A DNA stretch of 64,000 nt, taken from IMG/VR virus record IMGVR_UViG_3300020434_000055; one strand, given 5' to 3'. This document shows positions 2,451 through 50,233 of the stretch, in pieces. A model generated the notes under the pieces. The model was not told where the DNA came from. It saw only the letters and a program-made list of their open reading frames with translations, and searched no databases. Numbering within the stretch: position 1 is the stretch's first letter; each line of letters begins with the position of its first letter. Source of the stretch: a virus (Duplodnaviria > Caudoviricetes). The position numbers and the translations under genes were made by a program.

Positions 2451-3440
2451 ATGAGTGCATTAAGCACAATGCTGACAACAAAAAAAGTAGGTTTTACCGA
2501 AGCCGAAGAACAGAATCTTGAGAAAGGAAGAATTTATACATATACTCAAGGGGCTAATTGGTCTAGACTTTGGTGCGGATTTTGTTTTCATCCTGAAGTA
2601 GCAGGAACAGTATATTTAGAATCATGGGGAGCTGGCGGTAGTGGCGGTAAAATGTGCTGTTGCGGTTTTGGCTTACCTGGTAACTCTGCGGCTTATGCCT
2701 ATAGAAAATTTGATCTAGGAGAAAATGGATTTATTTGCGGATGTACAGGTCAATCATGTGGTAATGCAGATACATTATGTCACAGAGGTTGTTCTGAACC
2801 AACGTTCATGAATATTTCTACTGGCTTAGGTGAATGTACTTGCGTTTGTACTCAAGGTGGTGCAGGCGGAGTTTCTTATTGTTCTACTAATACTTCATTT
2901 TATTGTTGTTTTGCGGCAAACGGTTTTTGTGCAACAAAAACTGATAACGATCACTGCGGATGGGTATGTAATATGTGCGATGGAAAACATATAGCTCAAG
3001 CATATTGCGGAGATGCAGGTTTTAATTGTCCAGGAAGAACTTCTTGTGTAGCGGCTTTTGGTTGTTACCCATTATGTATTTGTAATTTTACTCACTACGC
3101 ACCTACACCTGCAGGTATGTTTAGTAAAGAAGGAATGTATGTCGCTTTTAATACAGAAAACGATAACGGATTTTCATCATGGTCAGGACAAGGTGCACAC
3201 CAATTAGAAGCATCTTTAGGGGCTGGAAGATGGCCTACAGGTGGTATACCTTGGGCAACTTGCTGGGGAGCAAGTAAAGGTTGTCACTGTCAAATAGGTG
3301 AACCTTGTATACCTCACGTTCCAGTTGGAATGGGAGGACACGGATCAATGCCATGTCCACAAGTAAGAGATCACGCAAGTAGAGGAGGTCACGGTGGAGT
3401 ACGAATTAAATTTATTCGTAACGACGAACCGACTCAATAA
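2451..3440 (+). CDS. Cys/Gly-rich putative fibre-tip protein, paralogue 1
   Basis: WGAGGSG Gly-rich motif, CCCG, 31 Cys in 329 aa (hand count), C-terminal CPQVRDHASRGGHGGVRIKF; AGGAG SD. Confidence 0.6.
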   Translation: MSALSTMLTTKKVGFTEAEEQNLEKGRIYTYTQGANWSRLWCGFCFHPEVAGTVYLESWGAGGSGGKMCCCGFGLPGNSAAYAYRKFDLGENGFICGCTGQSCGNADTLCHRGCSEPTFMNISTGLGECTCVCTQGGAGGVSYCSTNTSFYCCFAANGFCATKTDNDHCGWVCNMCDGKHIAQAYCGDAGFNCPGRTSCVAAFGCYPLCICNFTHYAPTPAGMFSKEGMYVAFNTENDNGFSSWSGQGAHQLEASLGAGRWPTGGIPWATCWGASKGCHCQIGEPCIPHVPVGMGGHGSMPCPQVRDHASRGGHGGVRIKFIRNDEPTQ

Positions 3441-3452
3441 AGAGAGATTATT

Positions 3453-4466
3453 ATGCCAGCATCATCATTAACAGCATTATTACAAACGAAGTATGATTAC
3501 CCATTAGCTAATGAAACTAATTTAGAAACGGGACAGCTTTTTACATTTTATCCTAGTAATCAATATAGCACTAATTTTTGGTGTCATATTTGTTGGAAAC
3601 CACCAGCAAATGGTATAGCTACAATTGAAGTATGGGGTGCGGCTGGATCAGGTGCAGAAATGTGCTGTTGCGGTGGAGGAATTCCAGGCAATCCAGGCGG
3701 TTATTCTAGAAAAGTATTACCAGAATTTGGAGCATCTTGGGCCGATTGTTATATTTGTGCTCAGATAGGTTTATCTTGTAATAACACAGACGATTTATGT
3801 TACAGAGGAATGTCAGAACCAACTCAAGTTTGTTGGTTAGCTGGTGATTCCGATGGATGTATTTGTGCTCAAGGTGGTAGAGGTGGAACATCATTCTGCT
3901 CATCTAGTCCAGCAATGTATTGTTGTTACCTAACAAATGACTGGTGTGGTACACAAGCCGGTGGAGCAGGTTGCGGTATAATTTGTAATTACAGAGATGA
4001 TGGTGGTACAAATTATGACGGTGCAGATTATTGTGCATTTGCTTATGGTGGAGATGTAAACTGTTATGGCGGATTTAGTTGTATGTACTTTAAAAACTGT
4101 TATCCAAACTGTAACTGTAGACAAAATCCAGTAATTAGAATTCCACCAGGAATGATTTCAGAAAAAGGTGGACAAGTTCAATACGCAATGGATACATCTA
4201 ATCAAAGATCTTATTGGTCAGGAATGGGCGGAATTTTTGGAGTAATGGAACCATTAAATATGGCAACAAGAAATCCAACTCAAGGAGCTCCTTATAATGC
4301 TTGTTGGACAGGTAATGACTCTTGCGGATGTTATCAAGATCAAGGAGCAATTAACTTCTTCCCTGGAGGAATTCCAGGACAAGGTCCTACACCTTGCGAT
4401 GGTGTAAGAGATCACGCTTGGAGAGGCGGAAACGGAATAATGAGGATTAAATTTGTAGCTTCGTAA
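3453..4466 (+). CDS. Cys/Gly-rich putative fibre-tip protein, paralogue 2
   Basis: WGAAGSG, CCCG, 28 Cys in 337 aa, C-terminal CDGVRDHAWRGGNGIMRIKF. Confidence 0.6.
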   Translation: MPASSLTALLQTKYDYPLANETNLETGQLFTFYPSNQYSTNFWCHICWKPPANGIATIEVWGAAGSGAEMCCCGGGIPGNPGGYSRKVLPEFGASWADCYICAQIGLSCNNTDDLCYRGMSEPTQVCWLAGDSDGCICAQGGRGGTSFCSSSPAMYCCYLTNDWCGTQAGGAGCGIICNYRDDGGTNYDGADYCAFAYGGDVNCYGGFSCMYFKNCYPNCNCRQNPVIRIPPGMISEKGGQVQYAMDTSNQRSYWSGMGGIFGVMEPLNMATRNPTQGAPYNACWTGNDSCGCYQDQGAINFFPGGIPGQGPTPCDGVRDHAWRGGNGIMRIKFVAS

Positions 4467-4484
4467 AAAGGAGTAAATAGTATT

Positions 4485-5453
4485 ATGGCAACATTGAAAA
4501 AAATATTAGGTGAAAGAACAGCCGGAGGCGGTATAGAACAAAACATAGAAAAAGGTTATATCTATGCTTATTCTCCAGGTACTCAACATTCTAATTTTTG
4601 TAATGGAGTTTGCTGGACTGCACCTTCAAATGGTAAAGCAATTGTAGAAATTTGGGGAGCTGGTGGATCTGGTTCTCGTATGTGTTGTTGTGGTGATGGA
4701 TTACCAGGCAATGCAGGAGGTTATTCTAAGAAAACTCTTGCAATTACGGCAGATGATACTATTACAGCTTCTTTAGGAATGGCTTGTATGTCTCACCCAC
4801 TTTGTCACTCAGGTTGCGGTAGTCCAACTCAATTATGTTATGTAACAGCCGGTAGTAATGGAAATGGTTGTATGTGTGCTAGAGGTGGATATGGCGGGAA
4901 ATCAATGTGTACTACAGGTACATCTTTTTATTGCTGTTATTCCAACGAAGGATTTTGTTTCAAAAGATGTAACAATGACAATTGTGCATTAATTTGTAAC
5001 GTATGTTCTGGAGCATGGGAAGCCTTAGCATATGGTGGTGACGTAAACTGTTGTGGAGAAATAGGTTGCGTAAGTTATTTTGGATGTTGTCCTCACTGTA
5101 AATGTTTCTTTCAAAGACACGCACCTGTACCAGCAGGTATGTTTGCAGAAAATGGAGCGTTAATTACGTTCCAATCAGAATCAGATACGACTCCAATGTC
5201 GCAATGGTCAGGAAATCAATTATTCCAATATTATGCGTCCCTTAATTTGGCAACAAAAGCGCCAAGACAAGGAAATCCAAGATCATATTGTTGGAGATCA
5301 GACAGATCTTGTGGATGTTATGAATCACAAGGTTGTGCAAATTTATTGCCAGTTGGAGCTGGCGGATTAGGACCACTTGCTTGTCCTGATGTTAGAGACC
5401 ACGGAATTAGAGGTGGTCATGGAGGCGTTAGAATTAAATTTATAGCTTCATAA
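4485..5453 (+). CDS. Cys/Gly-rich putative fibre-tip protein, paralogue 3
   Basis: WGAGGSG, CCCG, 31 Cys in 322 aa, C-terminal CPDVRDHGIRGGHGGVRIKF; AGGAG SD. Confidence 0.6.
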   Translation: MATLKKILGERTAGGGIEQNIEKGYIYAYSPGTQHSNFCNGVCWTAPSNGKAIVEIWGAGGSGSRMCCCGDGLPGNAGGYSKKTLAITADDTITASLGMACMSHPLCHSGCGSPTQLCYVTAGSNGNGCMCARGGYGGKSMCTTGTSFYCCYSNEGFCFKRCNNDNCALICNVCSGAWEALAYGGDVNCCGEIGCVSYFGCCPHCKCFFQRHAPVPAGMFAENGALITFQSESDTTPMSQWSGNQLFQYYASLNLATKAPRQGNPRSYCWRSDRSCGCYESQGCANLLPVGAGGLGPLACPDVRDHGIRGGHGGVRIKFIAS

Positions 5454-5504
5454 TAAATATTAGTATTAACAGGAGTTAGATAAATAGTTTTATAGGAGAA
5501 CACA

Positions 5505-6161
5505 ATGACAGTTAGCGTAGCTTTTAATATTGAAATGCCAAATGAACCGTATGTAGATGATTTTTCAAACGGTGATGTTCATGCGTCAACATATATTGGA
5601 CATAAGTTTATTTCAGTTAGCGTAGATGCAGATGGATGGGTTATTAGTGTTTTATCAGAAGCAGATACAGAAGCAGGATTAGTAGAACAAGCTAAACCTA
5701 CACCTGAAAATCATACAGCATTAACAATTGATGGTACAGCAAATCCTTTTGAAGCGTCTTATGTATGTAGAAAATATACAACAGGTGCAGTAGCAAATTA
5801 CACAGAAAATTTAGGAACAACTGATGATAATGGAGATCCAGAAACGTGGGAATATACATGGCACGAAAACGGAGTTTTATCTCAAATTTACTTACACGGT
5901 ACATTAAAATACTCAGGTGGAGCATTTCAAAAACCTACAATGAGAATACACGCATTTGACCAAGCATCATTTAATGCATCAATGGGTCCTATGTCAGCAG
6001 GATTACAAGAAGCTCTTGATGCCGACTCGGCGAATCAAGTTTATTCAGCAGAGCAAAGACAAGCAATTATAGATCACAAAACATATGTAGATAACATTAC
6101 TACAAAATACGCGGCAGTTAAGCATTGGAAAGTTCCTTTCAAACCAATGCCTCACGTATAA
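5505..6161 (+). CDS. Hypothetical protein, possibly a fibre assembly chaperone
   Basis: 218-aa acidic ORF right after the fibre-like trio. Its C-terminal helix plus HWKVPFKPMP loosely resembles tail-fibre assembly chaperone ends. Confidence 0.4.
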   Translation: MTVSVAFNIEMPNEPYVDDFSNGDVHASTYIGHKFISVSVDADGWVISVLSEADTEAGLVEQAKPTPENHTALTIDGTANPFEASYVCRKYTTGAVANYTENLGTTDDNGDPETWEYTWHENGVLSQIYLHGTLKYSGGAFQKPTMRIHAFDQASFNASMGPMSAGLQEALDADSANQVYSAEQRQAIIDHKTYVDNITTKYAAVKHWKVPFKPMPHV

Positions 6162-6241
6162 TAGTTTAATACCTCACAATACAATTCAAAATTTTTAGGT
6201 AACAACATTCATACTTTATAAGTATAAGTGTTAACCTAATT

Positions 6242-7213
6242 ATGACTAAAAATAATCCAATATCTAGACCAAAAGCATTTTTTTTAAATGGAGGAATGGG
6301 CAGAATTATTTGTGCCATCCCTGCCCTTGAAAAATATTATGAAGAATCTGATGATAAAGATTTTATCATAGTAGTAGAAGGAATTCAAAATATTCTAAAT
6401 GGTCATCCAACTTTAGACGCTAGAACATATGATTATTCTCATAAAAATTTATTTCATACTAAACTTGTAAAAATGGATGTAGTAAGTTTAGAACCTTATA
6501 GAGTATGGGAATATTATAATCAAAAATGTAATATAATTCAAGCATTTGATATTTTAATTAATAATAAAGGTGTAAGAGAATTGCCTAAACCTAAAATTAA
6601 TTTGAGTAAAGAAGAATTAATGGCAGGAGAAAAAGCAATAAATGATATTAAAAAACAAATTAAAAAAGACAAAGTAATTATTATTCAACCCTTCGGTCGA
6701 GCAATTCAACAAATAGATAGTAGTTTTGTAGATAAATCTAACCGAAGTATGGAATTTAAAAATTTAAAAAATTTAATAAGAAAATTTCAGGAAAAAGATT
6801 ATGCAGTAGCTATAATGGCAGAATTTGGAATAGAATTTAAAGATGAAAAATATAAAGATGAAGTAGCAATGCCTGAAAAAATTGACTTAAGACAATGGAC
6901 AGCAATTATAAAATATGCTGATCAATTTTTAGGTTGTGACAGTGTAGGACAACATTTGTCTTATATAGTTGATACACCATGTACAGTTGTTATAGGACAA
7001 ACTTATCCTATTAACACATCATACCCTAAAACAAAAAATATTTCTATAATTGATATGGGACAACTAGAACGAGAATATGATCCAATAAGAATAACAGTAG
7101 ATGAAAGAGTTAGTAGACAAGGTGAAAAATTAATGTGGATGAGTAAAGAAATAGAAGATCTTGTTGTAAAAGTAGTATTAGGTGAAGAAACAATAGAGGA
7201 AGAAGATGAATAA
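6242..7213 (+). CDS. GT-B glycosyltransferase, GT9 (heptosyltransferase)-like, paralogue A
   Basis: N-terminal NGGMGRIICAIP, central IIIQPFG, C-terminal ADQFLGCDSVGQHLS...PCTVVIGQT (compare GT9 DSGxxHLA...PTVxLFGxT). Confidence 0.6.
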   Translation: MTKNNPISRPKAFFLNGGMGRIICAIPALEKYYEESDDKDFIIVVEGIQNILNGHPTLDARTYDYSHKNLFHTKLVKMDVVSLEPYRVWEYYNQKCNIIQAFDILINNKGVRELPKPKINLSKEELMAGEKAINDIKKQIKKDKVIIIQPFGRAIQQIDSSFVDKSNRSMEFKNLKNLIRKFQEKDYAVAIMAEFGIEFKDEKYKDEVAMPEKIDLRQWTAIIKYADQFLGCDSVGQHLSYIVDTPCTVVIGQTYPINTSYPKTKNISIIDMGQLEREYDPIRITVDERVSRQGEKLMWMSKEIEDLVVKVVLGEETIEEEDE

Positions 7214-9014
7214 AAAATCTGGATGGATTGCCGCAATTTCTAGAGGACATAATTCAGGAATATGTCTAATGAAAGATGGAGAAATTATTTTTGCAATTGA
7301 AGAAGAAAGATTATCAAGACACAAATATGATGGTGGTCCTTATATGAGTATGTTGGAAATATTAAAATATACAGACACTTTAGATTATTTAATTATAGCA
7401 CATACCCAACCATTAACTGATCCTTCTACTGGTAGAGTTGATTATACAGGTGATGATGTATATACAGGTTTAGCAAGAAAATTAGGATTGATAGATAGAA
7501 AAGTAGATTTAAAAAAACATCCTCAAGTAATAGATCTCAGTCATATTCATCACAAGTTACACGCCGCCTGTGCTTTTTATAGATCTGGATTTGATGAAGC
7601 GTGTGCGGTTATTTGTGATGGTGCAGGAACTTTTATGCCTATTAATAGTTCTCTTGTAGGTGATATGACAATGTTTGAAGTTGAATCTATATTTGATTGT
7701 TCTTATCCTAATAATATATTTACTGTATGGAAACATTATGGTACTGGTACAACATCTCCAGGTGCTCTTATGACACAACAATCAGACAAAATGGGAGAGC
7801 CTGGAAGAACTCATCAAGTATTATTGTCAGACAAGGCAGGAATTACTAAAGTTTATGAAGCAGTTACTCAATACTGTGGATTTTCTGCCATTGAAGCAGG
7901 AAAAACAATGGGATTATTTCCTTATGGAAAACCTAATGATAGAATCCCTAAACTTTTTCAACAAGAAGGAAGATTTTCACAATCTAATAGAAATGTAATT
8001 CTTCCTACATATCCAAATGCGGCTATAGTAAATGAACAAATGTATGAATATCTTAATAATGTACCTGAAAGTTGTTCTGATGTTTCTACATTAGATAATA
8101 GGAGAGATTTAGCATATGCTTGTCAAATAGAAACTCAAGCAGAATTATTAAAAGTAATTTACCAGGCTGTAAAAAGAACAGGTAGAAAAAATGTTGTATT
8201 ATCAGGTGGCTATGGATTAAATTGTGTAGCAAATTATTTTTATCTTGAATCTTTAAGAAAAGATGGAATTAATTTATTTGTTGAACCTGTGTCAAATGAC
8301 GCTGGAACAGCCATTGGAGCGGCTCTTTTATTTTATTATGCTTTGTCAGAGGATAAGACAAAAAGACCACTTACTACATTGTGTCAAGGTCCTGAAAGAA
8401 AATATACATTAGAACAAATACAAGAATTAACAAATAAAGAAGGTATTGAATTAGTAGATGCAAACGATAAAGATATAGTCAAATTAATGATAGAAAAAAA
8501 TATTGTTTCTATGTTTCAAGGAAAATCAGAGAGTGGACCTAGAGCATTAGGTAATAGAAGTATTTTATTTGATCCTACATTTAAAGATGGTAAAGATTTT
8601 GTTAATATAGTTAAACGTAGAGAATATTTTAGACCATTTGCAGGGTCTATATTACATGAACACGTACATGATTGGTTTGATTTAAGAGGAATGGAAGAAA
8701 GTCCTTTTATGATGTATGCTGTAAATTGTCAAGAAGGAATAGCAGAAAAAATTCCTAGCATTATACACATAGATGGTACTTGTAGAATACAAACAGTTAA
8801 AGAAGAACAAAATCCATTGTATTATAAATTAATTAAAGAGTTTTATGATCAAACAAAAATACCAATAGTGTTTAATACGTCATTTAATTTGGCAGGAGAA
8901 CCACTTGTAGAAACATTACAAGATGCTATATTAACTCTTGAACACTCTCTTTTAGAATATTTGTATCTTCCAGAATATGGAAAAATGATAAAGGTAAAAA
9001 ATGTCGAGAAATAG
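7206..9014 (+). CDS. O-carbamoyltransferase, NodU/CmcH/TobZ family
   Basis: All expected motifs present: GHNS...EEERLSR, HHKLHAACAF, CDGAG, GKTMGLFPYG, GGYGLNCVAN, NDAGTAIGAA, GPRALGNRSIL, KRREYFRPFA, HIDGTCRIQTV, NTSFNLAGEP. Confidence 0.93.
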   Translation: MNKKSGWIAAISRGHNSGICLMKDGEIIFAIEEERLSRHKYDGGPYMSMLEILKYTDTLDYLIIAHTQPLTDPSTGRVDYTGDDVYTGLARKLGLIDRKVDLKKHPQVIDLSHIHHKLHAACAFYRSGFDEACAVICDGAGTFMPINSSLVGDMTMFEVESIFDCSYPNNIFTVWKHYGTGTTSPGALMTQQSDKMGEPGRTHQVLLSDKAGITKVYEAVTQYCGFSAIEAGKTMGLFPYGKPNDRIPKLFQQEGRFSQSNRNVILPTYPNAAIVNEQMYEYLNNVPESCSDVSTLDNRRDLAYACQIETQAELLKVIYQAVKRTGRKNVVLSGGYGLNCVANYFYLESLRKDGINLFVEPVSNDAGTAIGAALLFYYALSEDKTKRPLTTLCQGPERKYTLEQIQELTNKEGIELVDANDKDIVKLMIEKNIVSMFQGKSESGPRALGNRSILFDPTFKDGKDFVNIVKRREYFRPFAGSILHEHVHDWFDLRGMEESPFMMYAVNCQEGIAEKIPSIIHIDGTCRIQTVKEEQNPLYYKLIKEFYDQTKIPIVFNTSFNLAGEPLVETLQDAILTLEHSLLEYLYLPEYGKMIKVKNVEK

Positions 9015-9951
9015 TGCTATCTTTTTAAATGGTGGAGCAGGAAGAATGCTCAATTCAATACCTGCTTTAGAGAATTATCAAAAAGAAAATCCGGATGATG
9101 ATTTTGTAATAGTTTGTGAAGGTGGTACAGATGTTTTAAAAGGACATCCAACGTTACATTTTAGAACTTATGATGCTTGGCATAAAAACATTTTTCAAGA
9201 AATTTTAAAAGATAGAAATATAATTAGTCCAGAACCTTATAGAATTTGGGAATACTATACTCAAAAATGTAGTCTTGCTCAAGCATATGACATTGCACTT
9301 AATAATAAAGGCATAAGAGAATTATCTAAACCTTCAATAAAATTAAGTAAAGATGAAATTTTATATGCTCGAAAAATGTTAACAGAAATAAAAAATAAGA
9401 CTAAAAAAGACAAAGTAATTATAGTACAACCATTTGGACGAGGTATTAAAAAAGAAGATAAAGATATAGTAGACATTACAGGTAGAAGTATTGAAATAAA
9501 AAATCTTTATAATATTGTAAGAAAATTGGCTAAAAATTACAGTATATTAGTTATGACTGAAGTAGCTTTAGAATTTAATAAGCATATGTCAACACCTATT
9601 GCTATGCCACCTAATGTTCATATTAGAATATGGATGGCTTTAATTAAACAATGTGATCACTTTTTAGGTTGTGATAGTGTAGGACAACATATTGCTTATG
9701 CTTTTGATAAAACTACTACAGCTATAATAGGGTCTACATACCCTATTAACACGTCATATCCTGACGAAGAAACGTTTGACATCATAGATTTGGGCAAAGA
9801 TGACCGAGTATATAGCCCTATAAGAATAACTGTAGATGAATTTTCTGACAGAATAAATGAAGGTATAATGGACATGGATGACCAGCAAGAACAAAGGATA
9901 ATTCAGTCAGTTAATAGAATGATAAAACACGGTAAAAATAACCAATCATAA
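9001..9951 (+). CDS. GT-B glycosyltransferase, GT9-like, paralogue B
   Basis: Aligns by eye with 6242..7213 over its length: NGGAGR, EPYRIWEYY, IIVQPFGR, FLGCDSVGQH, YPINTSYP, YSPIRITVDE. Confidence 0.6.
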   Translation: MSRNSAIFLNGGAGRMLNSIPALENYQKENPDDDFVIVCEGGTDVLKGHPTLHFRTYDAWHKNIFQEILKDRNIISPEPYRIWEYYTQKCSLAQAYDIALNNKGIRELSKPSIKLSKDEILYARKMLTEIKNKTKKDKVIIVQPFGRGIKKEDKDIVDITGRSIEIKNLYNIVRKLAKNYSILVMTEVALEFNKHMSTPIAMPPNVHIRIWMALIKQCDHFLGCDSVGQHIAYAFDKTTTAIIGSTYPINTSYPDEETFDIIDLGKDDRVYSPIRITVDEFSDRINEGIMDMDDQQEQRIIQSVNRMIKHGKNNQS

Positions 9952-10017
9952 CCCACTCCCCCACTCAACTCTATCCTAGTAAAATTGGTAAATACATAAT
10001 ATAGAAGGATTTTTCAA

Positions 10018-10434
10018 ATGTTTGATGTGTCAAGATTATTTGGTAAAGGCGACAAAAATACGTTGTTAATGAAAAATGGATTAAATTTTTCATACAGCGG
10101 CCCTTATACTGTGGTAGAAGAAGAGGTGGTTTTAGACCAATGGCACGTTAATACCTTCTGTACAGCAGAGTATACAATATCTGTAGATTACGATACAAAT
10201 AATAAAGAAATTATTAGATGTTTAATGGTAGCTAGTCCTGAAAATAGTTCTCTTACAATTTATGGTAGATCAAATTTAGGAAATGATTTAGTAAAATTAA
10301 CTAGTGCAGTTACTAATTCATATGTACAATTAAAAATAGACCCTGCAAATAAAACAGCAACAACAAAATATACAGGATCAAAAGTTATCTTTAAAGCAAC
10401 ATATTTTCAAACAATAAATGCTTTAAAACTTTAG
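10018..10434 (+). CDS. Hypothetical virion protein
   Basis: 138-aa beta-rich ORF in the structural region, with upstream GTAAATA and AAGGA SD. Confidence 0.5.
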   Translation: MFDVSRLFGKGDKNTLLMKNGLNFSYSGPYTVVEEEVVLDQWHVNTFCTAEYTISVDYDTNNKEIIRCLMVASPENSSLTIYGRSNLGNDLVKLTSAVTNSYVQLKIDPANKTATTKYTGSKVIFKATYFQTINALKL

Positions 10435-10468: not shown

Positions 10469-12658
10469 ATGGCAGTAAATTATAAACCTTTAGAATCGCA
10501 ATATGGTTATAAATCCCCAGGATTTGTTGTAGATGATACGGGTAATGTAACAGTAAGAACTGTAACCAGCACATATATTCCAACACCAGCTGAATCCGTA
10601 AATTTCATAGTTTCTGAAGATGCAAGTCAATTTACTATGGTGGCACCTTCAGCCGCATCTTATACTCCAACAGCCGCATCATATACACCTTCAACAGGAG
10701 TAATGGTATTAACTATTGGAACACATACTTTACAAGCTGGTAATAAAATTAAAATTGCCCCTAATAGTTTAACATTTACTTGTAACATGGACGGTCACGC
10801 TACTGAAAAAACATATCCAAGGGCAACTGGATCAGCCGCACCTGGTGGAGTAGATTATTTCTATGATAAAGAAATAACACTTACTGGTAGAACAGAAACA
10901 ACAATTACAATGAACGTTGGTGATACTAGTATATCAGGTAACAATCATCCACATACGTTTGTAAGAGCTACTGCTGATTGTGTAACTAATGAGTCTTTAG
11001 GAACTAATCCACTTCTTTCTTTAGAAAGAGGACAAAGTTATGTTTTTAAACTTAATGAATTAAGTTCTTTAACATTTAATACATTTTCACCTGACGGTAA
11101 TAATCCTTTAGTTCCAGGAAATCTTTTTAATGATGGTTTAAAACACGTTACAACTATTACAGGAAATACACTTGTATCTGGTACTTTAACATTTGCTCAA
11201 TCTTGGCAACAAGAAACAGATTATAATAGATCTGTATCTATAGTTGTACCTGATACTGCAAATACTCCTTTACAAGGAAAACAAATACCTGTAGTTATAA
11301 GTTTGCATAATACAAATAAAACAATGGGGAATGGTATTGCAAACATTACATATATGACAGACAAAATTTTAATTGCTCCTCAAGGTTATAATAATGAATG
11401 GAATGTTGGTTATCAAACTAGTAAAGCAAATGATATTGCATTTCTTGATAGCATTATAGAAGAATTAGAAAAGTATGACAATGTAGATACTACAGCTATT
11501 ACAATAGTAGGTAAAGGTAATGGCGGACAGTTAGCACATCAATATGGTTTACAAACAACAAAAACAAATGTTACAAACATAGTAATTGAGTCAGCATTAT
11601 TTCACGAAGATCAATACAGAAAAGATACTAATACGTTTTATGGAATGAATTTAACAAATTTAGGAGATTCAACAGTTGTATCTTGGTCGGCTGTATCAGT
11701 TTTACCTAAAAATATTTTAATGTTTCACGGTGAGGTAGATTTAGTTTTTCCTTATAATGGTGGAACTGTAAGTGGTCAAACTTTTACTAACGCAGAAGAT
11801 ACTATATATGGTTGGGCAAAAGCAAATAATACAGCTGAAGCACAATTAAGCAACTCTGGTGTTACACAATCAGATGGGTCAAACTTATTCTCATATAATT
11901 CTGGTGATGTTCAAATGTATGGATTTCCTAATATAGCACAAAATTGGGACGCATTTCTAACATCAGTTCAAGCAAAAATAAATGCTTTAGCAACACCTAA
12001 TTCTTATTTGAATATTCCAGTAATTACAGATACTACTGAAGGTGATGCACAAGGAAAAGCAACAGGACTTACAACGTGGGAAGTTCCAGTAGATGCTCCA
12101 GATGTATTATTTTATGGAAATAGTAATCGAAATCCTTATGGATCAGTTGCTATTACTAACCCAACTCTTGTAGGAATAGGATCTTTTAGTTCTATTCTTA
12201 ATACAGGAAATTTCTTTAGTTCAGGTGAAGATGCAATTATAACAATGAGTCCAACAGGTACTGGTACTGTAACTATTTCTCCAGCAGGTGGTGGATTTGT
12301 AAACAATGTAAATGTTAATGCAACTAATTTAACAGTAGGTGGAGAAGTAACTATAACACCTAATGAAGATGTAACTATAAGCCCACAAGTAAATGGTACG
12401 TTAGCAATGAACCCTTTATCAAGAGGTGAAATGAATAATATGAATATAGGAGGTTCTATAGCAGGAGATGGGTCTTTTTCTAGTTTAGTTTCTAGCGGAG
12501 GAACGTTAAATAACACTACAATTGGTGTAACTACACCTGCAAATGCTGGGTTCTTAACTGCTACGGCGGAAAACGTTCCGACAGATAAAAAGGACTTAGG
12601 TAATAAAGCGTATATTGATAATACCTCAATGGTATATTCAATTGCATTAGGAGTATAA
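10469..12658 (+). CDS. Virion/fibre protein with internal alpha/beta-hydrolase (PHB-depolymerase/esterase-like) domain lacking catalytic residues
   Basis: N-terminal YTPSTGVMVLTIGTH...LTFTCNMDG...YPR module; central PVVISLH...APQG...W...DIAF...VD...GKGNGG...MFHG..D.VFPYNGG; C-terminal fibre-like region ending YSIALGV. Confidence 0.65.
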   Translation: MAVNYKPLESQYGYKSPGFVVDDTGNVTVRTVTSTYIPTPAESVNFIVSEDASQFTMVAPSAASYTPTAASYTPSTGVMVLTIGTHTLQAGNKIKIAPNSLTFTCNMDGHATEKTYPRATGSAAPGGVDYFYDKEITLTGRTETTITMNVGDTSISGNNHPHTFVRATADCVTNESLGTNPLLSLERGQSYVFKLNELSSLTFNTFSPDGNNPLVPGNLFNDGLKHVTTITGNTLVSGTLTFAQSWQQETDYNRSVSIVVPDTANTPLQGKQIPVVISLHNTNKTMGNGIANITYMTDKILIAPQGYNNEWNVGYQTSKANDIAFLDSIIEELEKYDNVDTTAITIVGKGNGGQLAHQYGLQTTKTNVTNIVIESALFHEDQYRKDTNTFYGMNLTNLGDSTVVSWSAVSVLPKNILMFHGEVDLVFPYNGGTVSGQTFTNAEDTIYGWAKANNTAEAQLSNSGVTQSDGSNLFSYNSGDVQMYGFPNIAQNWDAFLTSVQAKINALATPNSYLNIPVITDTTEGDAQGKATGLTTWEVPVDAPDVLFYGNSNRNPYGSVAITNPTLVGIGSFSSILNTGNFFSSGEDAIITMSPTGTGTVTISPAGGGFVNNVNVNATNLTVGGEVTITPNEDVTISPQVNGTLAMNPLSRGEMNNMNIGGSIAGDGSFSSLVSSGGTLNNTTIGVTTPANAGFLTATAENVPTDKKDLGNKAYIDNTSMVYSIALGV

Positions 12659-12662
12659 TTAA

Positions 12663-15600
12663 ATGGCTAAAAAGAAATTAAAAAATTATATATTTCAAAA
12701 AGGAATTCCTAAAACCGGGAATAACTATCCTATTGCTTGGAATCTACTTGATAAAAACGTAGAATATCTTAAAGATGAAATGTTAGGATATATTAAAGCC
12801 AGCTCAGCTAGAGATACTGCTATTAATTTATATCCTAATTTAGATTCTAGAATTACAAATAATAAAGAATATATTAAAGATGAAGTTGCATCTTGGGTTT
12901 CAGCACGAGTTATTCAAAATGTGGCACCATTTGCTGGTTATACAAAAGCGGCTAATGTTATAGAAGATGATGTTGATGCAGTAATAACTGCTGTTGCACG
13001 TGACGTTAGATATAATGGAAATGAACAAATAAGAGCACAAATAGAAACATATTTTATTGATGGAACACTTCAATTAGCTAATGGTGGCGATCCAGAAATA
13101 GCTTATCTAACTCAAGCTAGAACAATTATAACAGATTTCATTGCAACAGGAGCCACATATTCAAGTACTCAAAATGCAACAACTCAAGATCTAACAGGAT
13201 CAAATGGTGAATCAGGTGGAATAACTGAATTTACTACTAAAGCAAATCAAGTAATTGATACGATTGATAATGGAATTATACAAACTCCAGCTCTTTCTAG
13301 TAGCCCTTATGTATTTGAAAACTTTACTTACGATAAAAGTAAGTGCGATAGAGATTACCAATTTGTTTTAGATGCATTTTTAAATGATTTACGTTATAAT
13401 GGAAATAAATCAACAAGATATATTTCTTCTAAATTTTGGGTTGGATCAACACCTCAATTAGATGGAGATAGACAACCTGAAATACAAACACAATATTGGA
13501 TTAGAGATTTTATAAACAATTATATTTTTACTAATGTAGATGCTTCTAATCAATCTCCTAATGCAAGTACTATTATAAATGCTAATAAAGAATTTATAGG
13601 AGATGAAGTTGCGGCTTGGTTTGATGCAACATATCCAGGTGTTCATAGTCAAACAGAAATAGATAAGTGCGAAAGAGATTCTAAGTTTAATATCGAAGCA
13701 ATAGCACATGATATACAATATGGTGGTAATTCAGAAATAGTTAGAACAGCTAAAAAATATTGGGAAGGTGCCGCTTTAACATTATATCCAAATGAAAGAA
13801 CTTATGCAGTTGCAGTTAATAATAAAATAGAAGAAATTATTAATGGCTATATTCTTACTAATACTCCATGGACGTCATTACAAAGTCCAAGTGTAACTAT
13901 ACAAACAATGGGATCAGGTGAAGGTAGTGCTACTGCTAAAGTAACATCTTTCATCCAAATTCTTAATGCTGTAACATTAAATGGCGTAGGACAACTTCCA
14001 GTAGAAGTACATACTACTTCACATCAAGATCCTATAACTTCTGTTCAATTTACAGATGACAATACATCTGAAAGTCTAGCGTCTAATAGAATATCTACGC
14101 TTTCTTTTATTATTTCTGATGTAATGGAAAATGGATTAGATAATTTACCAGCTTTAGAAAGAAATGAAGTATCTAGTATAAGAGCAGTTGATCCAGCTGG
14201 AAAAATTAAACATGAAGATATTTTATTAGTTACTAATACTACAAGAAATACTGTATTATACAATTTTGCTGACCCTTCTATGGGTTGTGAAGTAGAATAT
14301 GACAGAGGACTAACTGGCAGTTCTCATACAGAGCTTGTTGAAGATACAGATTTTCCTTCTTTCTTAGAAGGTGCAGATACAATATCTACAATATTTTTTA
14401 ACGTAGATACTAGTACACACGAAAACACAGATAGTATACAAGCCTTTATAGAAGCTACAGAACTTAGAGTAAGACCATTTGATTTTGGTACAGATGCAAT
14501 TGAAAGATATAGAATTGCAAAACCTCAATCAATGATTGACGCTGACTTTGAGTATGGTCTTCAGCCAACAAAATGGCAAGCCATTTCAACACAAAGAGGT
14601 TATCCATCAATTTACGAAGTACCGGGTACAGATATTGACGTTGAATCAGTAACAACTGACGCATCAACTAGTACTCAAGGTATAGGTGCTTCATTAATAA
14701 CTGTAAACACAACAGGTCCTCATAACTTGGATGTTGGAGCTCCTATTTCAATTATAGGATTTGCAGGTTCAGGTGTAGAAGGTACAGGTAGAGCAACAGG
14801 ATCATTTGTTGTACATACTATTCCTACAAATAAACAATTAACTTATTATGCTAAAGCTAAAGTTGGTACTTCTGCTGGTGCAGTAATTTCTACAAAATTT
14901 ACTCAAATGCGTAGAGCCGCATTTTATACTGGGGCAGATTTAGGAGAACCAAGTTTTTCTGTTGCAAGTAATGGATCAAGTGGTGCTGTTGTTACATCAA
15001 TAGGCGCAATTCAAGGAGAAACAGTTTTAGCATTTACAGGAACACCTCCTCCTACTGGTGCACCTATTACTGGAACAGGTGTCGCAACAGGTACTCAAGT
15101 TACAGCGATTCAAGGAACAGGTGGAGCCATAGCAACACCAAAAATTAGTGGTGATTATGCCTCAGGAACATCACAAATAAATGTTGTTGATGCATCAGGT
15201 ATAGTTCAAAACTCTGTAATGGATAGAGGAGATGGTTATGCAACAACTATTATAAGTGTTGTAGGTCAAACTTTAGTTTTATCAACTCCATTAAATGGAG
15301 CTTTGATAGGTGATCAAACAGTTTATCCTGAAGTTGCTGGAACTAATGCAACGCCGGCAGGACTTGAGGCAACGTTTAATGTAACCTGGGCAGGTGGAAA
15401 CTATACTGTAACTCTTATTAATACTGGAAATGATTATGTAGTTGGAGATGCAATAGTTATTTTAGGAAATATGTTAAGTGGTACTACTCCTGAAAACGAT
15501 CTTATAATATCAGTAGATGAAGTAGATACTGCAGGAGAAATTCTTGCTTTTACATTTACAGGAGTCTCTTTTGGAGGAACAGGAAGTCTTTCAGGAATAA

Positions 15601-20198: not shown

Positions 20199-20591
20199 TT
20201 ATTTCTTTTCAGGATTATTTTTAGAATCTTTTTGACTATCACCTTTAACAATTCTATAATTGTCATCAGAATGATCAGGAGTACTAACTTCAGATACACT
20301 ACCGGAATTACTCATACATACTAATTGATGTGGTTGGCAAGGAGGATTATGCCAAGAGTCGCCTTCTTTTAATTCTTGAGAATATAAAGTTGCATCTTTA
20401 GTATCAATCCAATTTAATTTAAATACACCATTGTTTACAAACCAAGTTTCATCTTTATCTTTATGAAAATGCATACTAAATTTTGCTCCTTTTTTAGTAA
20501 ACACCATAATTTTTCCACAGTACTTTTCATTAGAAGCCCATATTAATTCATAGCCCCAACCCATTTCTCGTTTACCTGTTTTATTGATCAT
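20199..20591 (-). CDS. Cupin-fold sugar isomerase/epimerase-like protein
   Basis: Lies on the minus strand (track label wrong; plus strand 20199 reads TTA). GWGYE.IW...FSMHFHKDKDETW...HNPPCQPHQL cupin metal motifs. Confidence 0.7.
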   Translation of the reverse strand: MINKTGKREMGWGYELIWASNEKYCGKIMVFTKKGAKFSMHFHKDKDETWFVNNGVFKLNWIDTKDATLYSQELKEGDSWHNPPCQPHQLVCMSNSGSVSEVSTPDHSDDNYRIVKGDSQKDSKNNPEKK

Positions 20592-21396
20592 TTACAAATT
20601 CCTTAACGGTTTTCCAATTAATGTCTATATGTTTATTTAATTTTGTCAAATCGGCGCAAGTATAACTTTGATATTGATTGCTTAAATTTAATGGCATAGG
20701 TATAGTTTCTATTTTAGCATTGTATTTTTTAGCGATAATTCCAGCTATTCTTAAAAAACTAGTAGTCTTACCAGTACCTACATTAAAAATACCACTAACA
20801 TCTTTTTTTAACATTTGTTCATGTACAGTACATACATCATCTACACAAACAAAATCTCTAAGATAATTTTCACTATTTTCAAAAATTTTAATTACTTTAT
20901 CTTCTTTAGCTTGTTTTGTAAATTTAGTTATAGGTGATGCTTGATCTTTTTTATGTTCTTCGTCAGAACCATATACATTAAAATATCTAAATCCTTGAAC
21001 AAGGACATCAAATTGGTCCACAGATTCAATAAAACGATCAAACAAATATTTGCTCCATGCATATGGATTCATTGGAGACACAGGACCATCTTCTGTAAAT
21101 GTACTTTGACCTCCATAAACACTAGCAGAACTGGCATATTGAAAATTTGTTCCCATAGTATCACATAATTGTAACAATCTCATACTAAAATCATAATTTT
21201 GTGTTAATATTTTTTTAACATTAGTTTCTGTAGTAGTTGCAATTGCGCCTAAATGTATTACCCAATCATATTTTGATGGATCTGGCACAACATTTTCTAC
21301 ATAAGAATAACCTTTTACAGTATGTCCTTTAGACTCTAAATGTTTAGATAAGTTTTTTCCTATAAATCCATTATGTCCTGTTATTAATATGTTCAT
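20581..21396 (-). CDS. hldD: ADP-L-glycero-D-manno-heptose 6-epimerase
   Basis: Minus strand; likely start MNILITGHNGFIG at 21396 (TAATG overlap). YASSASVYG, PYAWSKYLFD, GFRYFNVYG...HK, RDFVCVDDV, GIFNVGTG..SF and YQSYTCADL match HldD/RfaD. Confidence 0.85.
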   Translation of the reverse strand: MNILITGHNGFIGKNLSKHLESKGHTVKGYSYVENVVPDPSKYDWVIHLGAIATTTETNVKKILTQNYDFSMRLLQLCDTMGTNFQYASSASVYGGQSTFTEDGPVSPMNPYAWSKYLFDRFIESVDQFDVLVQGFRYFNVYGSDEEHKKDQASPITKFTKQAKEDKVIKIFENSENYLRDFVCVDDVCTVHEQMLKKDVSGIFNVGTGKTTSFLRIAGIIAKKYNAKIETIPMPLNLSNQYQSYTCADLTKLNKHIDINWKTVKEFVNDQ

Positions 21397-22001
21397 TAAT
21401 ATCCTGTCTTTTTCTCTCCCCAAGGTCTAGTTTTTTCTGCTACACTTTCGGGGATAGTTAAATGTGCATAGGTACTATCAGGTACCGGTATAAAATTAAT
21501 ATTAATTGCCATTCTACTTTTTACATCTGTACAAGTAGATCCAGAATGCATCATATAACTAGGAAAAATAACCATTGAATTTTCTACACTTGGTATTTTT
21601 GTACCATCTTCAAATTCAGTGTATCCATCATTTGTATTAATATAAAGAATTGCTGTAACACAACAAGGAGTTACTGTATCAACATGATAACCATGAGTAA
21701 CAAGTTTATCTTGTCTAGTAACAAGATTTGCTTTAACTCTAATAAAAGTTATTGGATCTAATAATGCAAAAACAGGAATTAGAGCTTCCCAATTAGATTC
21801 ATTTGTAACAATTCTATTACTTTCTTGAAATACGTGTGTAAATTGAAATTGGTATTTTTCAGTATCTGGTAATATGTGCATATCATCTACTACATTAGAA
21901 TTATAATACCAAGGAAAATTAAGACCCATGATAAGTTCTTGTAACCTTTTAAAGTGCTCAATTGATAATGCGTTTGGTAATTGGATTATTTTATTGTTCA
22001 T
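21396..22001 (-). CDS. 2OG-Fe(II) oxygenase (phage type)
   Basis: HVD...TAILYINTNDGYTEF...ENSMVIFPSYMMHSG...R pattern (HxD...H...R). Confidence 0.8.
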   Translation of the reverse strand: MNNKIIQLPNALSIEHFKRLQELIMGLNFPWYYNSNVVDDMHILPDTEKYQFQFTHVFQESNRIVTNESNWEALIPVFALLDPITFIRVKANLVTRQDKLVTHGYHVDTVTPCCVTAILYINTNDGYTEFEDGTKIPSVENSMVIFPSYMMHSGSTCTDVKSRMAININFIPVPDSTYAHLTIPESVAEKTRPWGEKKTGY

Positions 22002-23232
22002 TTTTAATTTTTTCTATTATGTCACTTGTAGAATGTCCTTCTATTCTTGGAAAAATTCTAACTTCTGCAAGTTCATTTCCTACGGTTGTTTGTACTGTCC
22101 AATCTCCCCCTTTTACTATAATATCTGGCATAACTTCTTTCATAAGTTTGTGTGGATTATCTTCTTCAAAAACTTTAACTTCGTCTACCCACGGTAACAT
22201 CATTAATTGTTTAACTCTTTTATCTTCATTATTAATAGGTCTATCCGGACCTTTTATTTTTTTAACACTATCGTCACTATTAATTCCAACAATTAATTTT
22301 TTACCTAAACTTTTTGCATATTTTAATAATTCTAAATGACCTATATGTAAAATATCAAATACTCCATTAGTAAAAATAACTCCTTTTTGTAAATCATTTA
22401 AAGTAACAGGTACAACACCACGTTGTTCTACGTTTCTAGCTGATGCCGTACACGCCAATTTACAACATTCAAATACATTAATATCTTTGGATATACCATA
22501 AGCTAATACACTTAAAAATGTGTCTCCTGCACCTGTAACATCTGCAACATCTTTTGCTTTTTCTTTTAATAAAGAATATTCACCTGTAGTACATAATACA
22601 TGAGCACCATTACTACCATCAGTAACTATTAACCATGTCCATTGATGTTCTCGCATAAATTTAAGAGCATCAGTAATTGAAAATACACTATTCCATTCGT
22701 TATATTCTTTCATATTTGGTTTAACAATATATGCTCCATCATAGGTATCTGCACTTTGTTTTGGATCAACTATTACATATTTTGTTTTTTTTAATAATTT
22801 AGATATTGTATCTTTTTTAATAACACCTTTATTATAATCACTAACAATTACTATATCATTTTCATTACAATCAACTGTAACTTCATTAGAATAATCTTCT
22901 TCTTTATCTAATCTTAAAACGTGTTTACCACCTTGACCTATTATCCTTGTTTTAGTAGTTGTAATAGAATGATCATAATTTAATTTAGGATGTATTTCTT
23001 GATTTAAAAATAATTTTATTAATTTTTTACCTGGATCATCTTGTCCTATTGCTCCATATAATTCACAAGGTACCTTTAAATTTGCAATATTAACTGCAAC
23101 ATTTCCAGCACCTCCTATACTATATTTTTTATTATTCTCTTTTATAACTAATACAGGTCCTTCAGGTGAAACTCTTTCTGCATTTCCTTCTATCCATATA
23201 TCTAACATAACATCACCAATTATTTTAATCAT
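21991..23232 (-). CDS. hldE: Bifunctional heptose 7-phosphate kinase / heptose 1-phosphate nucleotidyltransferase
   Basis: N-terminal IGDVMLD...RVSPEGPV, GGAGNVA, SDYNKG, VDPK, KPN..E, DVTGAGDT (PfkB kinase); C-terminal TNGVFDILHIGH, VGINSD.SV..KG..RP, KGGDW. Confidence 0.93.
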   Translation of the reverse strand: MIKIIGDVMLDIWIEGNAERVSPEGPVLVIKENNKKYSIGGAGNVAVNIANLKVPCELYGAIGQDDPGKKLIKLFLNQEIHPKLNYDHSITTTKTRIIGQGGKHVLRLDKEEDYSNEVTVDCNENDIVIVSDYNKGVIKKDTISKLLKKTKYVIVDPKQSADTYDGAYIVKPNMKEYNEWNSVFSITDALKFMREHQWTWLIVTDGSNGAHVLCTTGEYSLLKEKAKDVADVTGAGDTFLSVLAYGISKDINVFECCKLACTASARNVEQRGVVPVTLNDLQKGVIFTNGVFDILHIGHLELLKYAKSLGKKLIVGINSDDSVKKIKGPDRPINNEDKRVKQLMMLPWVDEVKVFEEDNPHKLMKEVMPDIIVKGGDWTVQTTVGNELAEVRIFPRIEGHSTSDIIEKIKNEQ

Positions 23233-23660
23233 ACTATAAATTTAACCATTTTAAAAACTGTTTCTAATTTTGTTTGATTGGTTTTATTTTGTAATGTTTT
23301 TCTTAATCCTTGATGCAAAGGTTTAGGCCATCTACCAAAAGCTACCCAAGAATAACCATCATGTTCTTTATTTAATTTAGGTATAAATTCATCTTTTACT
23401 AAACAAAGATATGTATGGTATAAGAAATTTTCATCATTACTAATGAATGTTTCCATAGGAATAGTTTTAACAATTTGTTGATTACCGATTTCTTCTTTAA
23501 TTTCTCTTTTCAATCCTTCCCAAGGATTTTCGGAAGTTGTTGTTCCTCCAACTAACCCCCAAACGTGACTTTGCTTACTTTGTGTCCTATGTAATAACAA
23601 AAATCGCTGAGTATTAAGGGTATAGAAAAGTGCTCCGCAACCAATTATTCTCTGGGTCAT
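23229..23660 (-). CDS. Nudix hydrolase
   Basis: Exact Nudix box GX5EX7REUXEEXG (GGTTTSENPWEGLKREIKEEIG). Confidence 0.88.
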   Translation of the reverse strand: MTQRIIGCGALFYTLNTQRFLLLHRTQSKQSHVWGLVGGTTTSENPWEGLKREIKEEIGNQQIVKTIPMETFISNDENFLYHTYLCLVKDEFIPKLNKEHDGYSWVAFGRWPKPLHQGLRKTLQNKTNQTKLETVFKMVKFIV

Positions 23661-42615: not shown

Positions 42616-43494
42616 ATGAATGAATTTAAATTACCAAAATTAGAAGGTAACAAACCTGTAGGACCAGATATAATCTATTTTAGTTGTGATCCTAAATATT
42701 GGCATGAGTATGGTTTTTATCTAGCTAAAAGTACTATACATTTTAATCCTGATATTTTTTTACATATTCATATTTTATATAATAATAAAATTGAACCTAT
42801 AACAAAAATTAATGGATATAAAATAACTTATTCGTATGAATGTGTAGATGATAATTTTGTAAATTCATTAATATTAACTCATGACAAAGGATTATTATCT
42901 CAAGGTTATAAAATACTTGAAACAATAAATGAAAAAGTAATTAAACGAAAAATATATTTTGCTAGTGCAAGATTTATTAGAATGAAAGAACTTTTTAAAG
43001 ATAAACAACACGTATTACAATTAGATGCCGATGGATTATGTCGTAAAAATTTTTCTATAGATGAATTTAGAGAAACTACTAAATTACCATCAGCAATGAG
43101 AAAACCAAAAGATCCTGATACATTAATTGCAAGTGCTATAACTCCGGGAACAGGTATTGAAAGTGCTAAATTTAAAAAAGAATTAGCTAATAAAATGACT
43201 GAGATTTTTACTAAACCAATTTATTGGTTTATAGATCAAACTGTATTAAGAGAAGTTTTTAGTAAAATTAAATTTGAATCTATTCCTTATAAATGGAATG
43301 CCTGGGGATTCAAAGACTTTGATATATTCAGTACTGCAAAAGGTCGAAAAAAAAATAATTGGCGATATCTTGATAGAAAAGTTAATTGGTTAACAATAAA
43401 CGAACAAAAAGAATATATTAGGAATACGTCAGAAGAAAGAAAACAAAGATTTCTTCGTAAGAAACAAAAGAAATTGTTATGGCTTAAAAAATGA
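42616..43494 (+). CDS. GT-A-like nucleotide-diphospho-sugar transferase
   Basis: ASARF...VLQLDADGL (DxD)...WFIDQTVL...WNAW. Confidence 0.6.
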   Translation: MNEFKLPKLEGNKPVGPDIIYFSCDPKYWHEYGFYLAKSTIHFNPDIFLHIHILYNNKIEPITKINGYKITYSYECVDDNFVNSLILTHDKGLLSQGYKILETINEKVIKRKIYFASARFIRMKELFKDKQHVLQLDADGLCRKNFSIDEFRETTKLPSAMRKPKDPDTLIASAITPGTGIESAKFKKELANKMTEIFTKPIYWFIDQTVLREVFSKIKFESIPYKWNAWGFKDFDIFSTAKGRKKNNWRYLDRKVNWLTINEQKEYIRNTSEERKQRFLRKKQKKLLWLKK

Positions 43495-49136: not shown

Positions 49137-49163
49137 AACTGGTTAATAAATATTGGTAATCCA

Positions 49164-49886: not shown

Positions 49887-50233
49887 AAGCAGGAAAAATT
49901 TGGGGACAAACAGAATTAATACACGCAAATGGTGTATTAGAATTTCATAGAATAGATTTTAAAGCAGGTGGAGTTTGTTCTAAACACAAACACAAATATA
50001 AATGGAATGGCTTTTATGTTGTTTCAGGCAAAATGATTGTAAGAGTTTGGAAAGATGATCAAGGACTAGTAGATGAAACATTATTAAATGCTGGTGACTG
50101 GACAAGAATTAAACCAGGAGAATATCATCAATTTGAAGGAGTAGAAGATGGTATTGCTTTTGAATTATACTGGGCACAATTTGATCATGATGATATAGAA
50201 AGAGAATATTCCGGGTCTAAAAAAAATGATTAA
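49883..50233 (+). CDS. Cupin-fold protein
   Basis: KIWG...CSKHKHKYKWNGFYV...IKPGEYHQF. Confidence 0.7.
   Translation: MKAGKIWGQTELIHANGVLEFHRIDFKAGGVCSKHKHKYKWNGFYVVSGKMIVRVWKDDQGLVDETLLNAGDWTRIKPGEYHQFEGVEDGIAFELYWAQFDHDDIEREYSGSKKND

Follow-up and report, generated by a model that had tools for sequence, protein, structure and literature searches.

A glycosyltransferase-carbamoyltransferase cassette in the tail-fibre gene block of a marine T4-like phage and its candidate role in fibre decoration

We analysed a 64,000-nucleotide stretch of viral DNA (IMG/VR virus record IMGVR_UViG_3300020434_000055, hereafter the window) and, within it, a cassette of three overlapping genes in which a carbamoyltransferase (CT) lies between two paralogous glycosyltransferase-like proteins (GTa and GTb, collectively GT). 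Judging from its sequence, the cassette is a real, conserved and phage-encoded unit for putative glycan tailoring, and every context examined was a phage. It stands in the tail-fibre, or host-recognition, gene block, and we put it at about an even chance that it supplies the transferase and tailoring functions of a module, encoded by the phage, for glycan decoration. The best explanation we can offer for its function, one that we hold as apt to be right as wrong, is that during assembly a carbamoylated heptose would be attached to one of the fibre-module proteins, the Cys/Gly-rich fibre tips being the likeliest acceptor.

The source DNA is part of a T4-like marine myovirus, encoding tail sheath, tail tube, terminase, gp13-like and gp15-like proteins, gp32 and UvsX. 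None of the cultured phages is closely related to the window at the DNA level. Marine and seawater metagenome runs of at least 7 studies (2014-2025) contain near-identical copies of positions 5400-10100 (93-100% of sampled words), pointing to a wide spread of this phage lineage.

The three proteins of the cassette

An earlier note on this DNA, made from the sequence alone, had described three intact open reading frames (ORFs) with 8-bp and 14-bp overlaps, the outer two encoding paralogues and the middle one a complete NodU-family enzyme. ORF calls and direct reading of the sequence bear out this structure (Table 1). GTa and GTb share 51% identity across 306 residues (E 5e-116) and both match phrog_8954, which makes them paralogues. 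The middle protein matches Carbam_trans_N (PF02543; E 8e-29, 101.5 bits against a cut-off of 24) and Carbam_trans_C (PF16861; E 4e-57, 192.8 bits against a cut-off of 27) over nearly their full length.

The PDB relatives of CT are 7xb6, NovN, TobZ and GdmN (E 1e-51 to 1e-43), all of them O-carbamoyltransferases. Aligned to 7xb6, the phage protein carries a Kae1-like His/Asp metal site and the YrdC-like motifs GPRALGNRS, KxRExFRPFA and HxDGTxR; in assigning these motifs to its Kae1-like and YrdC-like domains we assume that it follows the structure of TobZ. Across 21 orthologues (57-84% identity), H15, H115/H116/H119, D138, D365, GPRALGNR, K470/R472/R476 and H521/D523 are invariant. CT scores 135 bits on the NodU equivalog model (NCBIfam NF041651) against a cut-off of 1000, the mark of a family member and not of a NodU orthologue. 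The earlier note had also raised a HypF-like carbamoylation of thiols, for which we find no support: CT is of the NodU/TobZ O-carbamoyltransferase type, it reaches 18.7 bits on the HypF model TIGR00143 against a cut-off of 466, HypF_C_2 is sub-threshold (E 0.0016), and a Pfam search found neither an acylphosphatase nor a zinc-finger domain in it. CT has the two-domain architecture (YrdC-like and Kae1-like) and the conserved motifs of TobZ, NodU, NovN and GdmN. The substrates of these four enzymes are antibiotics or Nod factors, with TobZ, NodU and NovN acting on sugar hydroxyls, whereas the phage protein appears from its sequence to be a distinct O-carbamoyltransferase subfamily. A second, distant Carbam_trans_N domain (63123-63998, E 6e-26) runs off the end of the window and has little in common with the cassette CT beyond an HHxxHA...D motif.

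The label 'GT9-like', which the earlier note had given to the outer proteins, stands in part. Its predicted fold and one motif support it and Pfam membership does not, as GTa (19.1 bits) and GTb (21.1 bits) both fall below the Pfam GT9 (PF01075) gathering score of 22 bits. An AlphaFold (AF2) model of GTb, built from an alignment of 79 diverse family members, has a predicted local distance difference test score (pLDDT) of 96.7. The solved structures nearest to this model are exclusively GT9 (3tov, Z 24.6; WaaF, 21.7; TibC, 20.2; WaaC, 19.4), and GT9 structures score Z 24.6-19.0 as against at most 13.1 for all other GT-B folds, suggesting that the predicted fold is specifically that of GT9. The C-terminal donor-binding motif of GT9, D-(S/T)-G-x-x-H, is also present: within DSxGxH (D225-S-x-G-x-H230), D225 and H230 are invariant in 79/79 members, and a profile alignment places GiDSvgqHiA on svDTGLSHLT of WaaC and tnDSGLMHVA of WaaF, with DSxGxH on WaaC D261-H266. 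The N-terminal GGxGR loop (dGGaGRv) aligns to SSMGDV of WaaC in a low-scoring stretch that sets Arg15 against WaaC Asp13. Because GTa retains 29/30 family-conserved positions, including GGxGR, EPY, D158, RS and DSxGxH, both GT copies look functional by sequence.

Searching 1.84 billion proteins with a profile of the family yields only 603 cluster representatives, and the family therefore appears to be small and separate, not mainstream GT9; we do not file it as a GT9 member. From sequence and model, the GTs are probably transferases that use a nucleoside diphosphate (NDP)-heptose with different acceptor-side chemistry. Another GT9-like ORF in the window (45377-46156; hhalign probability 67%) was rejected as a member of the family, with which it has the donor motif alone in common.

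Linkage to Cys/Gly-rich fibre genes

Upstream of the cassette lie three tandem paralogues with 31, 28 and 31 Cys and ~16% Gly, our candidate substrates. An AF2 model of a Cys/Gly-rich protein (pLDDT 76.7) matches a fibre of cyanophage Pam3 (Z 15.8) and the tail tip of mycobacteriophage Bxb1 (Z 12.5), as well as the ALK/LTK glycine-rich domain (Z 8.4-9.6; next match 4.8), and on this model these would be virion proteins of the fibre or tail-tip type. The earlier note had the cassette directly after the trio and a possible chaperone. The trio is confirmed; the putative chaperone, a 218-residue protein, has no Pfam or PHROG match and no detectable chaperone domain. Its gene is conserved directly before GT in the window's clade and in some other loci. 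In relatives including S-SSM7, low-Cys genes among or after the Cys/Gly-rich genes carry a Phage_tail_APC (Tfa) chaperone domain.

We surveyed 80 IMG/VR loci, 63 of which had enough upstream DNA to be tested for Cys/Gly-rich genes. The block opens with a fibre gene and genes for two small proteins; next come two or three Cys/Gly-rich genes accompanied by chaperone-like genes, then GT and CT with up to two further genes between them, and lastly genes for a 138-residue protein, a fibre and a giant protein. CT lies within 5 kb of GT in 77/80 loci, the remaining three being truncated, and Cys/Gly-rich ORFs are present in 63/63 testable loci. Cultured phages give the same picture. Searches of whole phage records, in counts that ignore relatedness, found the Cys/Gly-rich family phrog_4205 in 5/5 GT-positive cyanomyoviruses (S-SSM7, P-SSM2, S-CAM1, S-CAM3 and Sf-FS3) and in 0/10 GT-negative ones (S-SM2, S-T4, P-TIM68, Sf-CH8, Syn9, S-PM2, P-SSM4, P-HM1, S-SM1 and S-RSM4). 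Linkage of the cassette to Cys-rich genes had been set beforehand as a test of the earlier note's idea, and it holds in the viral loci and in the cultured cyanomyoviruses alike. The pattern shows that GT and phrog_4205 belong to one module whose parts come and go together; it falls short of proving that they are enzyme and substrate. The block is arranged likewise in the cultured P-SSM2 and S-SSM7, where the heptose genes adjoin it.

The GT-CT-GT sandwich itself is clade-specific, because two GT paralogues occur in only 26/80 loci; the orders found elsewhere are GT-CT, or GT, one or two other genes, and CT. An order confined to one clade lends no support to the three-component GT-CT-GT complex that the earlier note had envisaged, and a complex prediction for CT with GTb (score 0.00) counts neither for nor against it.

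Other clades have a 299-residue FGCSFT protein, a CN-hydrolase, a methyltransferase or a 2-oxoglutarate (2OG) oxygenase around GT and CT. In one of them, one or two genes of ~272-299 residues stand between GT and CT (survey loci L047:10935-11834; L031:10926-11819 and 11819-12715; L057:10965-11783). These intervening genes have no Pfam or PHROG match, and their FGCSFT start is reminiscent of SGNH/GDSL enzymes; the ~299-residue genes were rejected as a third GT paralogue (hhalign probability 0.9%). The CN-hydrolase lies directly before GT (L047:9135-9956), an MTS methyltransferase directly after CT (L057:13576-14211), and the 2OG oxygenase between GT and CT (L065:10611-11168).

More distant members of the GT family also occur among structural genes. 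The Vibrio schitovirus (N4-like) vB_VspP_SBP1 encodes a shortened member of 244 residues with all motifs intact (gp066, L083:6998-7732), flanked by the tail-fibre gene and the gene of a 'tail family protein', and the family was found in about 30 further Vibrio phage records and in Aeromonas phage HJ05. On a metagenomic phage contig, a GT8 domain is fused to the GT9-fold family directly after three Collar-domain fibre genes (L085:5270-6946, P0265). On a podovirus-like contig a member neighbours a GT8 gene and has putative capsid-region genes on one side and an adaptor gene on the other, and another distant member lies upstream of a portal gene. Within the contexts examined, the GT family is so far confined to phages, where it sits in the structural modules of unrelated phages.

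Table 1. Coordinates of the cassette and of neighbouring features in the window
Feature	Position	Strand	Evidence
GTa: GT9-fold glycosyltransferase-like protein, 323 residues, paralogue of GTb	6242..7213	+	ORF; phrog_8954 (E 2e-124)
CT: NodU/CmcH/TobZ-family O-carbamoyltransferase, 602 residues, complete, two domains	7206..9014	+	ORF; Pfam; PDB relatives
GTb: GT9-fold glycosyltransferase-like protein, 316 residues	9001..9951	+	ORF; AF2 model; phrog_8954
Overlap of GTa stop and CT start, 8 bp, ATGAATAA	7206..7213	+	Direct sequence reading
Overlap of CT stop and GTb start, 14 bp, ATG...TAG	9001..9014	+	Direct sequence reading
Three tandem Cys/Gly-rich paralogues, 329/337/322 residues, candidate substrates	2451..5453	+	Cys/Gly content; phrog_4205
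218-residue protein, family unassigned, heads candidate transcription unit	5505..6161	+	ORF; synteny
138-residue protein, after the cassette in most related loci	10018..10434	+	Synteny; weak Cadherin-like beta-sandwich match
Two downstream fibre/virion structural proteins, 729 and 2511 residues	10469..20198	+	PHROG tail fibre and virion structural matches
Cupin, HldD-like epimerase, 2OG-Fe(II) oxygenase, bifunctional HldE-like kinase/nucleotidyltransferase, NUDIX	20199..23660	-	Pfam

Heptose supply and candidate function

Genes for HldE-like and HldD-like proteins lie on the minus strand 10 kb downstream of the cassette. HldE and heptose_epim are their best NCBIfam matches by a wide margin (next families 61 and 74 bits): the HldE-like protein scores 318 bits (equivalog cut-off 521; rfaE_dom_I 223 against 345, rfaE_dom_II 150 against 181.5) and the HldD-like protein 237.6 bits on heptose_epim (cut-off 274.6). 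All 7 GT-positive cultured cyanophages have a heptose kinase and a nucleotidyltransferase within a few kb. Going by the context of HldE-like and HldD-like genes near the cassette, the GT donor may be ADP-L,D- or D,D-heptose. An STTR5-based pointer to synthesis of CDP- or UDP-heptose was rejected: the nucleotidyltransferase tail at the C-terminus of the HldE-like protein (21991-22035, minus strand) reads FPRIEGHSTS, with His as the fifth motif residue, and the STTR5 hallmark (F/L)XXGRSTT has Arg there (PMC11573728). The Vibrio and Aeromonas phages with distant GT homologues are not among the HldE matches in the phage collection, which fits hosts that make their own ADP-heptose. In P-SSM2 and S-SSM7, genes annotated as 'phosphoheptose isomerase' (PSSM2_311, L002:12811-13155; S-SSM7_130, L001:17695-18030) encode proteins of 111-114 residues with a DxDGT start typical of HAD phosphatases; by sequence they look more like a GmhB-type phosphatase than GmhA, so the absent isomerase may be the conserved cupin ('cysteine dioxygenase'). 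No homologue of this HAD-like gene was found in the window.

We propose the following scheme. Late in infection, the phage HldE-like and HldD-like enzymes would make NDP-heptose, a sugar that a picocyanobacterial host, if such is the host, would not supply. The two GT9-fold paralogues would transfer it, either as two residues in sequence or onto two acceptor sites, and the acceptor would be a fibre-module protein, most likely one of the Cys/Gly-rich fibre-tip proteins encoded just upstream. The TobZ/NodU-type CT would O-carbamoylate one of that sugar's hydroxyls at the expense of carbamoyl phosphate and ATP. The earlier note had likewise suggested glycosylation and then carbamoylation of a virion substrate, and gene context favours a substrate in the fibre module. 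What the analysis shows are the gene structures, folds, conserved motifs, synteny and co-inheritance, and from these we infer the donor sugar, the order of steps, the late timing and the acceptor. A bolder form of the proposal, that phage GT9-fold enzymes with Arg in place of the catalytic Asp glycosylate the receptor-binding fibre tips of abundant ocean phages with a self-made carbamoylated heptose that the host is unable to make, is tentative and in our judgement somewhat unlikely. On this form the host-recognition surface of the virion would be in part a phage-built glycan, and with ~30 Cys per acceptor protein the linkage could be an unusual one, for example S-linked.

Several observations weigh against fibre decoration. 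WaaC Asp13, which we take to be the catalytic base in the G-D loop, corresponds to Arg in 75/79 family members and in both window paralogues; the catalytic Asp of GT9 is absent from this position, and catalysis is unlike that of known GT9 enzymes or might not take place. CT, the HldE-like protein and the HldD-like protein all score under their NCBIfam equivalog cut-offs. Neither GmhA nor GmhB was found in the window by tblastn with the 'phosphoheptose isomerase' proteins of P-SSM2 and S-SSM7. S-SM2, S-T4 and P-TIM68 lack this GT family but do have heptose genes, in 'LPS-like' (lipopolysaccharide-like) clusters away from the fibres, and a second sugar-gene cluster in the window fits a role at the host surface. 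The linkage to Cys/Gly-rich genes could reflect inherited synteny of one mobile fibre module and not a functional tie, and the fibre tips are a candidate acceptor. We know of no demonstration of a glycan on a cyanophage virion, and in the literature searched fibre glycosylation in these phages was neither proposed nor shown.

The foremost alternative, which we consider unlikely, is that the GTs and CT build or alter a glycan of the host surface (LPS, O-chain or another glycolipid) during infection, for instance to block superinfection or the adsorption of progeny to lysing cells. Such remodelling has been proposed for 'LPS genes' in the cyanophage and pelagimyophage literature (PMC3037559, PMC7029224, PMC12801897). 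The known GT9 enzymes WaaC and WaaF do act on LPS cores, and the core heptose of Pseudomonas is carbamoylated through WapO, but the LPS of cyanobacteria lacks Kdo and heptose (PMC4390846), so that the canonical GT9 acceptor is absent in them, and in the phage proteins Arg stands where LPS heptosyltransferases have their catalytic Asp. Host remodelling would also account for the window's second cluster with its GT25, GT8 and methyltransferases, for the further carbamoyltransferase, and for heptose genes that occur away from fibres and without this GT family. It sits less well with the location of the GT family itself: all examined contexts are phage structural modules, in four unrelated phage types, the presence or absence of GT equals that of the Cys/Gly-rich fibre tips in 15 cultured phages, and a late-type motif stands upstream of the cassette.

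A non-catalytic or assembly role seems quite improbable. The GT9-fold proteins would here bind nucleotide-sugar or scaffold the folding and assembly of the Cys/Gly-rich tips, with CT acting elsewhere; plant NDH complexes (7wff, 9grx) offer a parallel, since one of their non-enzymatic subunits has the GT9 fold. Replacement of the WaaC catalytic Asp by Arg and the location of the genes among Tfa-type chaperone genes would agree with this, but across members down to 23% identity DSxGxH and ~25 other positions vary hardly or not at all, the coupling to CT is constant, NDP-heptose genes lie near GT in all seven GT-positive cultured cyanophages, and a fusion to GT8 exists. Highly unlikely, finally, is the modification of DNA or of a small molecule, in which a modified phage-DNA base would be heptosylated and carbamoylated or a diffusible carbamoylated glycoside made: GT-B enzymes glucosylate T4 DNA, the characterised CT relatives all act on small molecules and an acceptor-site Arg would suit an anionic acceptor, but there is no base-hydroxymethylase or other hypermodification gene near the cassette, the GT family stands in structural modules and not among nucleotide-metabolism genes in every phage type examined, a survey of glycosylated 5-hydroxycytosine (NAR 2026) involves other, unrelated enzyme families, and gene context lends no support to the earlier note's alternative of a carbamoyltransferase acting on 5-hydroxymethylcytosine DNA.

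Known systems and expression timing

The earlier note knew of no characterised equivalent, a statement that we would revise: heptose 7-O-carbamoylation in Pseudomonas (WaaC/WaaF and WapO) and protein O-heptosylation by TibC/Aah are chemical precedents, and annotations of P-SSM2 and S-SSM7 have listed orthologues since 2005-2010 as 'LPS genes' with no role assigned. In the LPS inner core of Pseudomonas, the system nearest in chemistry, the GT9 enzymes WaaC and WaaF add heptose and the putative WapO (PA5005) adds a 7-O-carbamoyl group, giving 7-O-carbamoyl-HepII (PMC8005017). The phage system resembles this pathway in combining GT9-fold transferases, a carbamoyltransferase-family enzyme and a heptose supply, and a carbamoylated heptose would be its expected product. 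Unlike the Pseudomonas pathway, whose acceptor is Kdo2-lipid A, without counterpart in cyanobacteria, it has GTs with Arg at the Asp13 position that are sub-threshold in Pfam GT9 and are encoded among tail-fibre genes, not in a waa cluster. In the TibC/Aah systems (adhesins TibA/AIDA-I; PDB 4rap, 4rb4), which together with mycobacteriophage virion glycosylation come nearest in logic, a GT9-fold enzyme uses ADP-heptose on an adhesin encoded alongside. The GTb model aligns to TibC with Z ~20 over ~265 residues at ~11% identity, the alignment being limited to TibC residues 92-390. TibC has ~90 extra N-terminal residues and forms an iron-containing dodecamer, whereas the phage GTs (316-323 residues) have no such extension. 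Carbamoylation is not known for TibC/Aah, and their substrates are Ser-rich beta-helices as opposed to the Cys/Gly-rich domains here.

Mycobacteriophages offer a parallel at the level of the virion, where glycosyltransferase genes were reportedly linked to virion-protein glycosylation in experiments by Freeman et al. in 2023, as cited in PMC12801897. Phage-encoded GT genes are common to both cases; the hosts differ, and the case for the present cassette is one drawn from genes. We know of no NDP-heptose pathway or carbamoyltransferase involved in mycobacteriophage virion glycosylation.

A further comparison is with P-SSM2 (PSSM2_307/308) and S-SSM7 (SSSM7_120/121), whose T4-GC 302/303 orthologues lie in 'LPS gene clusters' with function unassigned (PMC3037559); Sullivan et al. 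2005/2010 read such clusters as 'functional or stuffer DNA' or as acting on host LPS. Both phages encode this GT family (43-50% identity) together with the same CT, downstream of Cys/Gly-rich genes and next to heptose genes. Unlike the window, they have one GT and not two flanking paralogues, followed in S-SSM7 by a 2OG oxygenase and a second CT. T4-like cyanophages and related phages rank with the most abundant marine viruses, and over the past two decades their 'LPS genes' have been taken for modifiers of the host surface or for stuffer DNA. Should some of these genes decorate the phages' own receptor-binding proteins, the modelling of host range, adsorption and phage-grazer or phage-antibody recognition changes for these phages. 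Fibre decoration would also assign a function to several thousand sequences of a phage-specific GT family and would explain viral NDP-heptose pathways, an open question raised in PMC11573728.

As for timing, the T4 late promoter octamer TATAAATA has 0 copies in the window against 16.7 +/- 4.2 expected. Its core, TAAATA, is enriched ~tenfold upstream of genes, including those for sheath, tube and terminase: of its 36 plus-strand copies, 19 fall within the 3-60 nt ahead of a gene start, although this zone is just 5.3% of the window. Copies are found at 5454 and 5481, before the 218-residue gene, and at 9989, before the 138-residue gene, and other examples are at 10448, 28277, 31573, 32302, 35997 and 37601. 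None of GTa, CT and GTb is preceded by TAAATA, and no terminator-like site was found between them. Because the motif precedes the 218-residue gene and no cassette gene, with no such site intervening, the 218-residue gene and GTa-CT-GTb are a candidate late unit, probably read through from the upstream motif. Both gene junctions (7077-7315 and 8942-9092) are covered by contigs with exact matches, which come from three studies and four RNA libraries; they are compatible with transcription in nature and prove neither transcription nor timing. Several TAAATA copies lie 6-7 nt from an ATG, implying very short leaders or a role in translation initiation.

The 138-residue protein downstream corresponds in some related loci to the start of a longer ORF. 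The second sugar-gene cluster, larger than the first, occupies 42616-54354, between UvsX and a helicase and among replication genes. It contains two GT25 genes, an RpiB/LacAB-type sugar-phosphate isomerase, a GT9-like ORF, four methyltransferases and a GT8, together with a second epimerase and cupin pair and several genes with no assigned family.

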